Shown here: piece by piece, positions 1-3,772 of the stretch
How positions within the stretch are numbered: position 1 is the first letter of the stretch
Layout of the letters: each line of letters begins with the position of its first letter
IMG/VR virus record: IMGVR_UViG_2648501165_000014
Source: a virus
Lineage: Duplodnaviria > Heunggongvirae > Uroviricota > Caudoviricetes
DNA: 3,772 nt
Reading direction: 5' to 3' (one strand)
Notes under the pieces: generated by a model
Databases searched by the model: none
What the model was told of the DNA's origin: nothing
The model's input: only the letters and a program-made list of their open reading frames with translations
Made by a program: the position numbers and the translations under genes

Positions 1-357
1 TTAAAAAATCAGAACGCCGTGCGGCCTCAACACCCGAAAGGCTTCTTTAAATCTCTGTCGCGAATCATCACGCCAGGCATCTTTATTCAGCCGTCCATAT
101 TTCTTTCCCATCCAGGCGTTATCACCAACACTCTCAAGATGCGGAGGGTCTAATACAACCATCGAAAAAGATGCGTCTGCAAATGATAATGCACGAAAAT
201 CTGCGATAATGTCAGGGCTGATAATCAAGCGTCTCCCATTGCGTAATGTGTATCCTTCTTTTCTGATATCGCTGAATATCGCCCGTTCGTCAGACTTATC
301 GAACCAGAACATGCGGCTGCCACAGCACATATCAAGAATGGTTGCCGGTGCACTCAC
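1..357 (-). CDS. Putative SAM-dependent methyltransferase-like protein (amino-methyltransferase motifs), 118 aa, possibly truncated
   Basis: Complete ORF with GTG start at 357-355 and TAA stop at 3-1. The start overlaps the upstream gene's TGA by 4 nt (GTGA), suggesting translational coupling. The protein has an N-terminal motif-I-like segment (ILDMCCGSR) and, about 60 aa later, a DPPH tetrapeptide preceded by hydrophobic residues (MVVLDPPH), resembling motif IV (D/N-P-P-Y/F/H) of N6-adenine/N4-cytosine and RsmD/HemK-type methyltransferases. It ends just after a strand-like segment (LRPHGVLIF), so it is short for a full methyltransferase fold. Family assignment is by motif only. Confidence 0.55.
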   Translation of the reverse strand: MSAPATILDMCCGSRMFWFDKSDERAIFSDIRKEGYTLRNGRRLIISPDIIADFRALSFADASFSMVVLDPPHLESVGDNAWMGKKYGRLNKDAWRDDSRQRFKEAFRVLRPHGVLIF

Positions 358-776
358 TGCGCCACGTCCTGAAAATTACCCTGATAGAAAGCCAGTATGC
401 GCTGCATAACTTCGCTCTTCCGGCACTCGCGACAGATTCTGTTTAGGCGACTGTCGTAGCGACGTATTTCTCCGTCAGGTGATGACCAGATAAGGTCCGG
501 ATCAACCACAGCAGGTTTCTTCACCTTTGCCCTCGAGAGTTTTTTGCGGGCGTTTTGCCAGTCCTTACGCGCCTGTTCAGAGGGGAATAACCCGTAGCCG
601 GAGTTGTATACATCGCCACTGGCTACCAGCTCTCTGGCAAGAACGCTCATCAGATATCTAGTCGCACCTGTTTTAGCTTCCAGTTGCCGTAACGTCTCAC
701 GGCCGCTCTGGCGCACGAGTTCCACCACCTGCCATTTAATTTTTTCCCGCTCTTCTTGTGTAAAAACTTTTGCCAC
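354..776 (-). CDS. Hypothetical protein, 140 aa, putative winged-helix/HTH DNA-binding N-terminus with a basic central region
   Basis: ORF with GTG start at 776-774, preceded on the - strand by a strong Shine-Dalgarno (AAGGGGGA) about 5-12 nt upstream, and TGA stop at 356-354. It lies 40 bp downstream of the O-like gene and is coupled to the downstream methyltransferase-like gene. The N-terminal ~60 aa (EEREKIKWQVVELVRQSGRETLRQLEAKTGATRYLMSVLARELVASGDV) has the look of a winged-helix domain; the centre is basic (ARKKLSRAKVKKP); there is a single CxxC (CRECR). No confident family assignment. Confidence 0.55.
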   Translation of the reverse strand: MAKVFTQEEREKIKWQVVELVRQSGRETLRQLEAKTGATRYLMSVLARELVASGDVYNSGYGLFPSEQARKDWQNARKKLSRAKVKKPAVVDPDLIWSSPDGEIRRYDSRLNRICRECRKSEVMQRILAFYQGNFQDVAQ

Positions 777-816
777 AAGTCCCCCTTAAAATTACCTCAT
801 GACCTGAAATCAACAC

Positions 817-1782
817 TTATCCTCTGAAACCAGGCGGAATTTCTGTATCCGGTTCAGAAATATGATTAACACAACGCTGTACAGGTGAACGTCCCAGGCG
901 GATGACCAGTTCGTCCCATTTTTCGCGGAGCTTTGACGGGCTCATGATGTTTTTTACCCAGAATGGATCTCGCTGAACCCGACCAAACATTTCGCAAATT
1001 TGTCTGTGGCTTCTGCCATCCAGCATCCGCATTGTGCGCACGTCATTGGCCCAGGCAGTCCAGTTAGGCTCTTTTGGTCGCATGATCTCGCCATCATCAC
1101 TGGCTGCCTGTTCGTAGAGACCCACGATCCGCCCCCAGATCCACTGCGCACACGCCAAATCCTCCCTGCTACCCCACTGGCGTTTTTTCGCACTAAACAC
1201 AACCGCGTCGGAGTTCCGGGTTAAAAAATCCTGTTCAGTCGTCTGCGGGTCCGGTTGCGAAGCTTCCGGACGAAAAGTGTTTTTATTCTCTGTAGTAATC
1301 TCTGTTGTATTCTCTGTAAGATCATCAGGCCATTTTGACCCGATGACATTGGGTCGTTTTGAACCAATGGAGCGTTTCATTTTGACCTCTTCCATCGTGT
1401 CATTTTGACCTGATGGAGCGGCGCATTTTGAACCGATGGATTCGCTCAATTTGCCACCATCTAAAAGCTCGCTCCCATAGTTGATCGTGTAGAAATTGGT
1501 CATATCGCGCTTTGATTTATTGAGCTTTTCACAACGCAAAAGCCCCAGCGTTTTCAGACTTGCAAACGCGCGCTTTAACGTTGACTCTGACCAGAATGGG
1601 AACTGTTCCAGCCATTGTTCCGTTGTGTTATAAATCCAGCGAACACCATCACATTCCATGCCGGAGTTGGTATCTCTCAACCAGTAGTGCAGTTGTTGCA
1701 AAACAATGGCTTCGTTTAAGCCAATTTTCATTGCCAGCTGCGTGTTTATAACCAGTGGGCGTTCAGCAAAAAGAAGGCTCAT
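817..1782 (-). CDS. Replication initiation protein, lambda O-like (phage replisome-organiser N-terminal winged-helix domain) with embedded iteron origin
   Basis: Uninterrupted frame 817-1836. The preferred start is ATG at 1782-1780 (MSLLFAERPLVINTQ...) with a GGATGG-like SD; the ORF-track start at 1836 is TTG with no SD. The N-terminal region (FAERPLVINTQLAMKIGLNEAIVLQQLHYWL...STLKRAFASLKTLGLL) resembles the O/DnaD-like replisome-organiser winged-helix. The central linker is encoded by tandem DNA repeats (SIGSK...SIGSKRPNVIGSK and TENTTEITTEN), as the lambda O gene contains ori-lambda iterons. Confidence 0.8.
   Translation of the reverse strand: MSLLFAERPLVINTQLAMKIGLNEAIVLQQLHYWLRDTNSGMECDGVRWIYNTTEQWLEQFPFWSESTLKRAFASLKTLGLLRCEKLNKSKRDMTNFYTINYGSELLDGGKLSESIGSKCAAPSGQNDTMEEVKMKRSIGSKRPNVIGSKWPDDLTENTTEITTENKNTFRPEASQPDPQTTEQDFLTRNSDAVVFSAKKRQWGSREDLACAQWIWGRIVGLYEQAASDDGEIMRPKEPNWTAWANDVRTMRMLDGRSHRQICEMFGRVQRDPFWVKNIMSPSKLREKWDELVIRLGRSPVQRCVNHISEPDTEIPPGFRG
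1286..1318. repeat. Three tandem 12-bp repeats (core TCTCTGT) in an AT-rich stretch flanking the iterons; candidate DNA-unwinding element of the origin
   Basis: TTCTCTGTAGTA / ATCTCTGTTGTA / TTCTCTGTAAGA, with the TCTCTGT core at 1287-1293, 1299-1305 and 1311-1317 (exact 12-bp period). They lie next to the iterons on the 3' side of the array in the O-gene reading direction and are flanked by T-rich sequence (GTGTTTTTATTC 1278-1289). This matches the iteron-then-AT-rich layout of lambda-type origins. Confidence 0.45.
1331..1460. repeat. Iteron array (putative replication origin) inside the O-like gene: about 5-6 direct repeats, consensus CATTTTGA(C/A)CnGATGGAGC, ~24-bp phasing
   Basis: Seen directly: CATTTTGACCCGATGACAT (1331), CGTTTTGAACCAATGGAGC (1355), CATTTTGACCTCTTCCATCG (1379, second half inverted), CATTTTGACCTGATGGAGC (1401), CATTTTGAACCGATGGATT (1425), and a degenerate CAATTTGCCACCATC (1448). 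Start-to-start spacing is 24, 24, 22, 24, 23 bp. Confidence 0.7.
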
Positions 1783-2222
1783 AATTCCATCCAGCTTTTT
1801 GTTGGTATTGCTGTCGATACGCAAGTTTGAAAGCAATTGCTTTTTCTATAAGTTCGTCAGTTTCACGATCCACTACGGCAGGATCAGCAAAAAGCAGTCC
1901 GGACTCCACCACATCGCCATATTCTTTGNNNNNNNNNNCACGTGATGCTTTTTCCGTCAGTAATTTCACGATACAACCTGAAATCATTAATCCGGATAGC
2001 CTCCATAATTGCAGGCACTAGCGCCGTGAACTTTTCACGCTTATCCCTGGTGTCGATAGCCTTCCAGCGTTCAAATATCTTCACTCGATTAACGCCAAGC
2101 GCTCGCTGATCAATCGCGCCACCTTCATATGTGACACGCTGAACATCGATGTTCGGGCGCTCTTTCAAAGCCGGCGCTCGTCTGATGTAAGAGATAAAGA
2201 AATCGATGAGCGAAGTAATCAT
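1763..2222 (-). CDS. Hypothetical protein of unknown function, reading frame interrupted by a 10-N assembly gap (apparent frameshift; possibly annotated as pseudogene or two fragments)
   Basis: The frame from ATG 2222-2220 (SD GGGAGAG 6 nt upstream; the ORF track's TTG at 2240 is less likely) is open down to the N-run and terminates 14 codons beyond it. A second frame is open from just upstream of the N-run to the stop at 1765-1763, running 55 codons past the gap. The simplest reading is one gene of about 150-160 aa whose frame is scrambled by the placeholder gap. The product is not recognisable. Confidence 0.45.
1929..1938. other. Assembly gap (run of 10 N)
   Basis: Literal nnnnnnnnnn in the sequence. 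The length is probably a placeholder, so the true sequence and length are unknown. Confidence 0.95.
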
Positions 2223-2457
2223 GATTGTCTCTCCCGGCAAATGGGTATCCGAAGAGCAGTTAATTGCGCTGAAAGGAATAAAAAAAGGTACGTTAAAAAA
2301 GGCCCGGGAAAAATCGTTTATGGAAGGAAGGGAATATAAGCATGTCGCTCATGACGGTATGCCATGGGATAACAGTCCATGCTTTTACAACCTGGAAGAA
2401 ATTGATCGCTGGATTGAGCGCCAGGCATCAGCGAGACCAAGACGTCATCTTACTTGA
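2206..2457 (+). CDS. xis: Excisionase-like protein (Xis; recombination directionality factor)
   Basis: Small basic ORF (83 aa from ATG 2206, or 78 aa from ATG 2221) immediately upstream of, and co-oriented with, the integrase (19 bp from the xis stop to the int ORF start). The sequence (WVSEEQLIALKGIKKGTLKKAREKSFMEGREYKHV...PCFYNLEEIDRWIE) has the character of enterobacterial prophage excisionase-like proteins. Stop is TGA at 2455-2457. Start codon is ambiguous, as neither ATG has a strong SD. Confidence 0.7.
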   Translation: MSEVIMIVSPGKWVSEEQLIALKGIKKGTLKKAREKSFMEGREYKHVAHDGMPWDNSPCFYNLEEIDRWIERQASARPRRHLT

Positions 2458-2491
2458 CTAAAAGCCACACTAACTAATGAGAGAAGTTGAA

Positions 2492-3772
2492 ATGAAATAT
2501 CCGACAGGCGTGGAAAACCATGGAGGGAAATTACGTATCTGGTTTGTTTATAAAGACGTAAGAGTCAGGGAAAATCTGGGGGTTCCTGACACAGCAAAAA
2601 ACAGGCGCGTTGCAGGTGAACTACGCTCCTCTGTTTGTTACGCAATAAAAACTGGTGTTTTCGACTATGCAAAACAGTTTCCCTCCTCACGCAATCTGGA
2701 AAAATTTGGTGAGGCCCGACAAGATTTAACCATAAAAGAACTGGCTGAAAAATTTCTGGCACTGAAAGAAACTGAAGTCGCCAAAACATCACTCAACACA
2801 TACCGTGCCGTCATCAAAAATATCCTGAGCATAATCGGTGAAAAAAATCTTGCCTCATCGATTAATAAAGAAAAATTACTGGAGGTTCGTAAAGAGTTAC
2901 TGACTGGATACCAGATCCCCAAAAGTAACTATATTGTTACACAACCAGGGAGATCGGCTGTAACTGTAAATAATTACATGACAAATCTTAACGCCGTGTT
3001 CCAGTTTGGTGTTGATAACGGTTACCTGGCAGATAATCCGTTTAAGGGGATCTCGCCATTAAAGGAATCAAGAACCATTCCGGATCCTCTTTCGCGGGAA
3101 GAATTTATCCGTCTTATCGATGCGTGCAGAAATCAGCAAGCAAAAAATTTATGGTGTGTTTCTGTTTATACTGGAGTTCGCCCTGGTGAGCTGTGTGCAC
3201 TTGGATGGGAGGACATAGATCTGAAAAATGGAACAATGATGATCAGGAGAAATTTAGCAAAAGACCGTTTCACGGTACCAAAAACACAGGCGGGAACCAA
3301 TCGGGTCATTCATCTTATTAAGCCAGCAATCGACGCTCTCCGGAGTCAGATGACATTAACGAGACTGAGCAAAGAGCATATCATTGATGTTCACCTCAGA
3401 GAGTATGGCAGAACAGAAAAACAAAAATGCACCTTTGTTTTTCAACCTGAAGTGTCAGCGAGAGTAAAAAATTATGGTGACCATTTTACCGTTGACTCAA
3501 TAAGGCAGATGTGGGACGCAGCGATAAAACGTGCCGGACTCCGCCATCGAAAATCATATCAGTCGAGACATACTTATGCCTGCTGGTCGCTGACAGCTGG
3601 TGCTAACCCGGCATTTATAGCAAACCAGATGGGCCATGCAGATGCGCAAATGGTATTTCAGGTATACGGAAAATGGATGTCTGAAAACAATAATGCACAG
3701 GTAGCTTTGTTAAATACACAGTTAAGCGAGTTTGCCCCAACCATGCCCCATAACGAAGCAATGAAAAATTAA
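2492..3772 (+). CDS. int: Tyrosine site-specific recombinase (phage integrase, lambda-Int family with N-terminal arm-type DNA-binding domain)
   Basis: The ORF is open from ATG 2477. The preferred start is ATG 2492 (MKYPTGVENHGGKLRIWF...), which has a purine-rich SD-like GAGAGAAG 5 nt upstream, whereas 2477 has none. The C-terminal catalytic domain shows the conserved tyrosine-recombinase signature residues: R in VYTGVRPGEL, the H-x-x-R box in SRHTYACWSL, H in MGHAD, and the nucleophile Y in VFQVYGKWM. The N-terminus (GGKLRIWFVYKDVR) resembles the arm-binding domains of enterobacterial prophage integrases. Stop is TAA at 3770-3772, the window end. Confidence 0.9.
   Translation: MKYPTGVENHGGKLRIWFVYKDVRVRENLGVPDTAKNRRVAGELRSSVCYAIKTGVFDYAKQFPSSRNLEKFGEARQDLTIKELAEKFLALKETEVAKTSLNTYRAVIKNILSIIGEKNLASSINKEKLLEVRKELLTGYQIPKSNYIVTQPGRSAVTVNNYMTNLNAVFQFGVDNGYLADNPFKGISPLKESRTIPDPLSREEFIRLIDACRNQQAKNLWCVSVYTGVRPGELCALGWEDIDLKNGTMMIRRNLAKDRFTVPKTQAGTNRVIHLIKPAIDALRSQMTLTRLSKEHIIDVHLREYGRTEKQKCTFVFQPEVSARVKNYGDHFTVDSIRQMWDAAIKRAGLRHRKSYQSRHTYACWSLTAGANPAFIANQMGHADAQMVFQVYGKWMSENNNAQVALLNTQLSEFAPTMPHNEAMKN

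Follow-up and report, generated by a model that had tools for sequence, protein, structure and literature searches.

The window analysed here, i.e. the whole stretch of 3,772 nucleotides (nt) of the IMG/VR record IMGVR_UViG_2648501165_000014, is a portion of a defective lambdoid prophage of Escherichia coli that carries a deletion and belongs to a Qin-type site. Its minus strand harbors, in the order of transcription, a truncated cII/YdaT-like gene, the gene of an O-like replication initiator, a gene for a protein of 140 amino acids (aa) and a methyltransferase gene (Table 1). The original prediction had pointed to a missing helicase loader in this replication module: At the position where a lambda P-type or DnaC-type gene would be expected the 140-aa gene is present, and either a recruitment of host DnaB/DnaC by the O-like protein's C-terminal domain or a function of the small protein as non-canonical loader or adaptor had been put forward. 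Indeed, no loader gene is located at the expected position, as the initiator and the 140-aa gene are separated by 41 bp only; the coding (minus) strand of this spacer revealed no promoter-like or terminator-like site.

Table 1. Features of the window (strand: - minus, + plus,. not stranded).
Feature	Position	Strand	Evidence and remarks
140-aa DUF977 / LygF / Ren-like gene	354-776	-	GTG start; PF06163, PHROG 142, hhalign to Ren, AlphaFold2, Foldseek, dN/dS
Shine-Dalgarno sequence AAGGGGG	781-787	-	read from sequence; 4 nt 5' of the GTG start, inside the 41-bp spacer
O-like replication initiator	817-1836	-	longest open reading frame 339 aa from TTG; 321 aa from ATG 1782 (phage annotation); PHROG 391, E 1e-91
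DnaT-type tail QRCVNHISEPDTEIPPGFRG	820-879	-	ends the initiator (20 codons); 14/20 identities with residues 160-179 of E. coli DnaT (...IPPGFRG)
Lambda-O-type C-terminal domain	901-1188	-	aa ~217-312 of the 339-aa reading frame; BLASTP against lambda O
Three tandem 12-nt repeats (TATTCTCTGTAG / TAATCTCTGTTG / TATTCTCTGTAA)	1284-1319	-	repeat search; directly flank the iterons
Origin iterons within the initiator gene	1323-1454	-	4-5 copies of ~23 nt (CATCnGGnCATTTTGACCnGATG), spacing 23-24 nt; repeat search, two families
SAM-dependent DNA methyltransferase	1-357	-	cut at the window edge; PHROG 954, E 7e-58; PADLOC MTase_II, E 4.5e-45 (SAM, S-adenosylmethionine)
cII / YdaT-like gene, 5'-truncated	1763-2172	-	PHROG 163; Pfam YdaT_toxin; PhiR42_1 alignment stops at 2172
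Deletion junction	2164-2172	.	blastn of the window against PhiR42_1 and E. coli UTAK-1; ~5 kb early region gone (cro, cI, exo)
Excisionase	2206-2457	+	Pfam DUF1233, E 1.6e-31; PHROG 539
Tyrosine integrase	2477-3772	+	Pfam Arm-DNA-bind_2 + Phage_integrase; adjoins rspB in E. coli genomes (Qin-type)

The 140-aa reading frame, which is preceded by a strong ribosome-binding site, is a real coding gene, since its ratio of nonsynonymous to synonymous substitution rates (dN/dS) amounted to 0.11-0.12 in comparison with three homologues (86-91% DNA identity). The protein matched the Pfam family PF06163 (DUF977) with 98.7 bits versus a cut-off of 22.1 (residues 1-136 aligned to positions 1-134 of the 134 of the model) and PHROG 142, the "Ren-like exclusion protein", with an E-value of 1.3e-46. 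The similarity to Ren of phage lambda was recovered by BLASTP (E 8e-6, C-terminal motif shared) and, at the level of the family, by hhalign of a DUF977 profile against Ren, which spanned the helix-turn-helix (HTH) and the C-terminal motif with a probability of 92.9% and an E-value of 3.6e-7. DUF977 is a small family, for which 1.8 billion proteins contain 98 representatives at the 50% identity level, many being fragmentary; its most conserved stretch is the C-terminal PYDRxxNxICxECRxSxxMQRVLAFY rather than the winged helix. At the locus of the 140-aa gene in E. coli UTAK-1, the protein WP_001151262.1 is termed "DUF977 family protein" in RefSeq; phage records use the name LygF, which appears in the literature just as a gene name in Salmonella genome notes with no function attached, and NCBIfam holds no family for the protein.

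According to the AlphaFold2 model, which was built on 15 diverse family members, helices at residues 7-24, 29-36 and 40-53 are followed by a beta-hairpin wing (57-64) and a further helix (67-83), all with a predicted local distance difference test (pLDDT) score above 90; the resulting topology H-H-H-E-E, a three-helix bundle and then the wing, is that of a winged helix (pLDDT >90 over residues 10-80). The winged-helix-like N-terminus (7-64) and the basic region (84-110) described in the original prediction were thereby confirmed, the latter as a disordered linker in front of a small C-terminal helical motif (116-131). As had also been stated, the protein contains no ATPase motif of the type [AG]xxxxGK[ST] and does not resemble lambda P: At a threshold of E<=0.1 no match to the Pfam families IstB/DnaC (PF01695) or Phage_lambda_P (PF06992) was obtained, while the positive controls YdaV (PF01695, 9e-20), lambda P (PF06992, 6e-62) and the "ydaV" of Rac-SA53 (PF06992, 4.6e-16) were recognized. 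The best Foldseek matches were winged-helix regulators of the GntR, MarR and ArsR types (probability ~1, with weak E-values of 0.02-0.09), and no loader was found; a search against the chain sequences of the PDB yielded chance-level matches only. In its sequence and predicted fold, the 140-aa protein is thus very probably a full-length member of the Ren/DUF977 family and not a helicase loader.

In the pR operon of lambda, the corresponding slot directly behind the replication genes holds ren, the product of which (96 aa) is homologous at the profile level across the HTH and the motif NxICxECRxSxxMxRVLAxY; it likewise falls into PHROG 142. In contrast to the 140-aa protein, Ren is shorter, lacks the helix and basic linker (aa ~65-105) and does not match DUF977 of Pfam; furthermore, ren comes after P, whereas the DUF977 gene of the window directly follows the initiator. 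Because the gene order in lambda is cII-O-P-ren, the 140-aa gene is to be placed in the ren slot, with the P slot being empty. A Rex-related phenotype is known for Ren only; compared with the DUF977/"LygF" proteins of enterobacterial prophages, the 140-aa protein is a plain member without any difference. The PADLOC defence models matched neither the 140-aa protein nor Ren. Toothman and Herskowitz reportedly described a Rex-exclusion phenotype of Ren in 1980. By analogy, the 140-aa protein would modulate or protect phage replication, as Ren does against Rex exclusion, with the winged helix binding DNA and the Ren motif binding a protein partner, and would have no part in helicase loading; such a protective role is a tentative assignment. 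In two-hybrid assays Ren contacts the Rex proteins (bioRxiv 10.1101/2021.04.19.439022), and it has no part in P-lethality or replicative killing (PMC3640518).

Alternatively, the protein could be a plain winged-helix transcription factor of delayed-early, nin-region or host genes that is linked neither to replication nor to exclusion. This would agree with the regulators among the best fold matches, with the classification of DUF977 as winged-helix HTH via HHpred/COMPASS and its fusion to Fic domains, where the HTH is thought to be autoregulatory (PMC2686095), and with the presence of YdaW or a PerC-like protein in the same slot of relatives. However, the conservation peaks in the C-terminal Ren motif and not in the recognition helix, no repeated operator-like site was noticed near the gene in the window, and the homology leads to Ren with its exclusion-related phenotype; we consider a purely transcriptional function the less likely case, but a serious competitor. 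The regulator-like occupants of the slot fit an accessory role and a transcription factor alike.

When the complete mEp460_ev081 sequence and 40.9 kb of HannyBb were scanned in all six frames, no DnaC-like or P-like open reading frame was detected, and the sole convincing Walker A motif was located in the terminase; the phage lineage is truly without a loader gene. The membership of the 140-aa protein in a known non-replicative family together with a loader gene elsewhere in the element had been named as the outcome that would speak against the original prediction: A known family with a transcription-factor-like fold does indeed include the protein, but no loader gene was found elsewhere in the element. 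A loss of the loader by deletion in a decayed prophage might be suspected in view of the defective state of the window (cII truncated, immunity region deleted, and an insertion sequence (IS), IS3, at the junction in related strains). The deletion, however, is situated on the opposite side of the initiator, and the 41-bp junction between O and DUF977 is identical in HannyBb, PhiR42_1, mEp460_ev081 and 54 IMG/VR contexts. The same gene arrangement is present in the plaque-forming or inducible phages PhiR42_1 (99% identity), HannyBb and mEp460_ev081, and complete relatives show the order cro-cII-O-DUF977-methyltransferase; loss by deletion, to which we assign next to no probability, is already refuted by the intact phages.

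The arrangement upstream of DUF977 was compared in a sample of 80 IMG/VR loci with a DUF977 gene >92% identical to that of the window; 71 of these, counted as having an intact initiator, are considered here, most of them closely related E. coli prophages, so that the counts represent non-independent events. The initiator was directly followed by DUF977 in 54 of the 71 contexts (with a distance of 41 bp in all 54), whereas a DnaC-like YdaV, usually accompanied by YdaW, was interposed in 12/71 and a protein of 153-225 aa plus YdaW in 3/71; the remaining two contexts (2/71) contained a frameshifted initiator. The loaderless layout, being the commonest in this phage group, is therefore not peculiar to the window. 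The 153-225-aa protein of these Rac-SA53-type modules, which had at first been taken as a non-ATPase of unknown kind, was assigned to the lambda-P family by Pfam (59.5 bits), and the former view was dropped. Among annotated phages, Rac-SA53, vB_EcoS-666R9 and vB_EcoS-683R6 possess a loader as well as DUF977; in the loader-containing modules the DUF977 gene is 1.2-1.5 kb away from the initiator. Identical types of initiator occur alone and together with a DnaC-like gene, i.e. the 640R1 type and the type of the window (57-61% identity).

Conversely, DUF977 is missing behind the lone O-like initiators in mEp460_4F5, where a PerC-like 162-aa gene (2386-2874) occupies the slot, in the Shigella phage VIT_AJPSC, where the next annotated gene ~0.5 kb downstream of the initiator encodes a 108-aa repressor-like protein, and in the Klebsiella phage vB_VIPKPNMC05, where a methyltransferase directly follows the initiator. 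On these gene arrangements, DUF977 is a separate mosaic cassette in the ren slot that is neither confined to loaderless modules nor needed by them. The slot after the replication genes holds varied small regulator-like genes: DUF977, YdaW (HTH_20 + DUF1627; Rac-SA53 3931-4692) and the 162-aa protein with PerC domain; this variety hints at a common accessory role. An equation of K-12 YdaW with DUF977 proved to be wrong, as YdaW consists of DUF1627 and an HTH and gave no alignment to the 140-aa protein; intact Rac-type phages have YdaW and DUF977 together. In titles and abstracts on YdaU, YdaV and YdaW, no functional information was evident.

These contexts bear upon the suggestion that the 140-aa protein acts as non-canonical loader or adaptor in place of lambda P or DnaC. 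The gene is the first after the initiator and co-transcribed with it, no other loader is encoded, the modeled DNA-binding fold and the conserved motif could provide contacts to DNA and to a protein, and Ren has been termed "likely involved in DNA replication" (bioRxiv 10.1101/2021.04.19.439022). Near-identical genes, however, are located downstream of DnaC-like and P-like loaders at a distance from the initiator, other phages with lone O-like initiators lack DUF977, and the protein shows neither an ATPase motif nor a Pfam or PHROG match to a loader family nor the fold of a loader. P and Ren occur side by side in lambda, whose replication, when reconstituted in vitro, requires O and P, not Ren. 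Since DUF977 is not tied to loaderless modules, P and Ren coexist in lambda and Ren is dispensable in vitro, a loader or adaptor function is very unlikely, and this part of the original prediction is not supported.

The attention is therewith shifted to the initiator itself. Its C-terminal domain shares 34% identity with lambda O over 148 aa (BLASTP, E 2e-26), and iterons inside the gene in combination with this domain characterize it as a lambda-O-type initiator. As in the lambda O-P module, the gene is placed in the pR operon after cII; in contrast to lambda, P is missing, the N-terminus is not of the Phage_rep_O type (no match to PF04492 in the Pfam search; lambda O as control, 5.7e-36), and the protein ends in a DnaT-type tail that is unlike the end of lambda O. 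The N-terminal domain is common to initiators of Klebsiella, Hafnia, Pseudomonas and Staphylococcus phages. The initiator is, by its sequence relationships, a mosaic of a non-Phage_rep_O N-terminus, a lambda-O-type C-terminus and a DnaT-type tail. The three 12-nt repeats, which code for TENTTEITTENK in the linker of the initiator, probably belong to the origin, by analogy with the A/T-rich region beside the lambda iterons, and may constitute an unwinding or auxiliary part of it.

The DnaT-type tail was present in 66/66 initiators that stand alone or are coupled to a DnaC-like gene and absent from 3/3 P-coupled initiators and from lambda O (69 contexts). It is attached to at least four otherwise unrelated types of phage initiator with the pattern ...SxPDxxIPPGFRG (further tail-bearing initiators: L003:4120-4977, L006:5467-6255, L007:3967-5037 and mEp460_4F5 2877-3857); more distant lone initiators exhibited the variant tails IPAGFRG or VPAGFRS. 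Apart from the last 20 residues, the initiator of the window did not match the domains of DnaT (PF17948 and the N-terminal oligomerisation domain), and the NCBIfam DnaT model reached 16 bits versus a cut-off of 201; the label "Primosomal protein I" that phage records give to these initiators depends on the 20-residue match only.

The same PPGFRG tail is found in the Rac-type YdaU-YdaV(-YdaW) modules and in the DnaT-DnaC pair of E. coli, which possess a DnaC-like gene in contrast to the module of the window; DnaT, unlike the initiator, is devoid of an origin-binding domain. The DnaC-like YdaV of the phages shows 50% identity with host DnaC along its full length, the order of the host dnaT-dnaC operon parallels that of phage initiator and DnaC-like gene, and dnaC has been described as domesticated from a phage (PMC5109545). 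An O-like N-terminus combined with a C-terminal DnaT element, as in the initiator of the window, has been reported for DopC of the domesticated lambda O/P-like pair DopC-DopE; DopC, however, has a P-like partner, is chromosomal and lacks iterons (PMC5509034), whereas the DnaT element of the window initiator is the 20-residue tail alone, set on a lambda-O-type C-terminal domain, and a loader is missing. Two entries of Rac-SA53 carry misleading gene names: "ydaU" (5181-6251) consists of DUF1376 and a genuine PF17948 domain (54% identical to DnaT 82-157) without the PPGFRG tail, and its partner "ydaV" (4727-5188) is of the lambda-P family and not DnaC-like.

Taken together, we favor the explanation that a Ren/DUF977 cassette without loader function stands next to a lone initiator that borrows DnaB-DnaC of the host via its DnaT-type tail. 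The O-like protein would bind to the iterons within its own gene and would itself bring host DnaB-DnaC to the origin; the tail would be the handle for the DnaC pathway, and the phage DnaC-like gene of some relatives an optional extra. For DnaT itself a recruitment of DnaB/DnaC is assumed, the mechanism being described as unknown (PMC13377028, PMC4132743). The use of host DnaB-DnaC by the lone initiator appears the more probable case, whereas for the tail as specific handle the chances seem somewhat short of even. Of the two alternatives initially proposed, the recruitment of host DnaB/DnaC by the O-like C-terminus is hence favored, on the comparative ground that the same types of initiator occur with and without a DnaC-like gene and all carry the DnaT tail; the loader or adaptor alternative found no support.

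According to the main competing explanation, the lone initiator would load DnaB via the PriA restart primosome, with the tail docking PriA or PriB and with a need for PriA, PriB, DnaT and DnaC in place of a direct contact with DnaB-DnaC. In the structure of the preprimosome, PriA serves as docking site for the DnaT C-terminal domain (PMC13377028), the tail represents a copy from DnaT, and some related initiators hold the entire DNA-binding domain of DnaT (PF17948). The tail, however, follows DnaC-type partners and no PriA-related gene, the available portion of the text of PMC13377028 does not specify the DnaT residues touching PriA, and a fork-recognition helicase is not obviously needed by an initiator bound to iterons; we therefore regard the PriA route as unlikely.

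Several points weigh against the borrowing of host DnaB-DnaC through the tail and against the Ren-like reading of the 140-aa protein. The tail could bind PriA or PriB instead; the sole published data on DnaT residues 154-179 concern a contribution to cooperative binding of single-stranded DNA (PMC4132743), and the work on the preprimosome proposes the N-terminal domain of DnaT, not the tail, as possible recruiter of DnaB/DnaC (PMC13377028). The P-coupled class comprises three contexts, and the 71 contexts stem mostly from close kin within E. coli, their counts not being independent. Although DUF977 occurs alongside loaders, an auxiliary part in helicase delivery is still conceivable, and the anti-exclusion role is carried over from a distant homologue, Ren.

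The phage genomes align to the window in two blocks, 1-2172 and 2171-3772, between which intact relatives contain ~5 kb with cro, cI, ydfB/C-like genes and exonuclease VIII. At the junction, the 5'-truncated cII-like gene is fused to the region upstream of xis; as the early region is deleted there, the replicon of the window is headless. In E. coli UTAK-1, where the element lies beside rspB, an IS3 of 1.24 kb is inserted exactly at this junction, so that the deletion may have been mediated by an IS. The 10 consecutive N at 1929-1938 hide 18 nt of ordinary cII sequence (TTTAACCCGGCGATCATG in PhiR42_1) and stem from masking in the source record; the scar of an excised IS was ruled out, since ordinary cII lies underneath and the IS3 of related strains is found at 2164-2172 instead. 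The stop codon of the 140-aa gene overlaps the GTG start of the methyltransferase gene in the sequence GTGA at 354-357, by which the latter is translationally coupled to DUF977. The methyltransferase is of the orphan type (PADLOC MTase_II / oMTase); its counterpart in HannyBb is annotated at just 68 aa, where the gene may be decaying. The methyltransferase position of the window lineage is taken in mEp460_ev081 by the opposite-strand gene of a 449-aa hypothetical protein just downstream of DUF977 (33822-35171, -), which may be moron or defence cargo.

The 140-aa gene thus represents an ordinary cassette of the DUF977/Ren family and no new loader, and the replication module likewise conforms to a general kind already known; lone-initiator modules were reportedly classified by Weigel and Seitz in 2006. 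A common lineage of E. coli prophages manages its replication with an initiator but without a loader, and the optional phage DnaC behind the same initiators constitutes a natural experiment that points to the use of host DnaC. The tail, which tracks the DnaC pathway and is missing in P-coupled initiators, is a stronger lead than the 140-aa gene and provides a cheap experimental handle on the recruitment of DnaB-DnaC by DnaT-like elements, still called unknown in recent structural papers. Somewhat speculatively, the tail (I/V)P(P/A)GFR(G/S) might act as a portable peptide for the recruitment of the DnaC-type machinery (DnaC or DnaB6-DnaC6), and as a secondary reading the Ren/DUF977 proteins may be accessory factors on such a tail-based initiation complex. 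If so, lambdoid phages could dispense with a loader gene through a tail peptide, the question of how DnaT passes DnaB-DnaC to the restart primosome would receive a testable answer, and the dnaT-dnaC operon of the host would descend from a phage module of initiator C-terminus plus DnaC.

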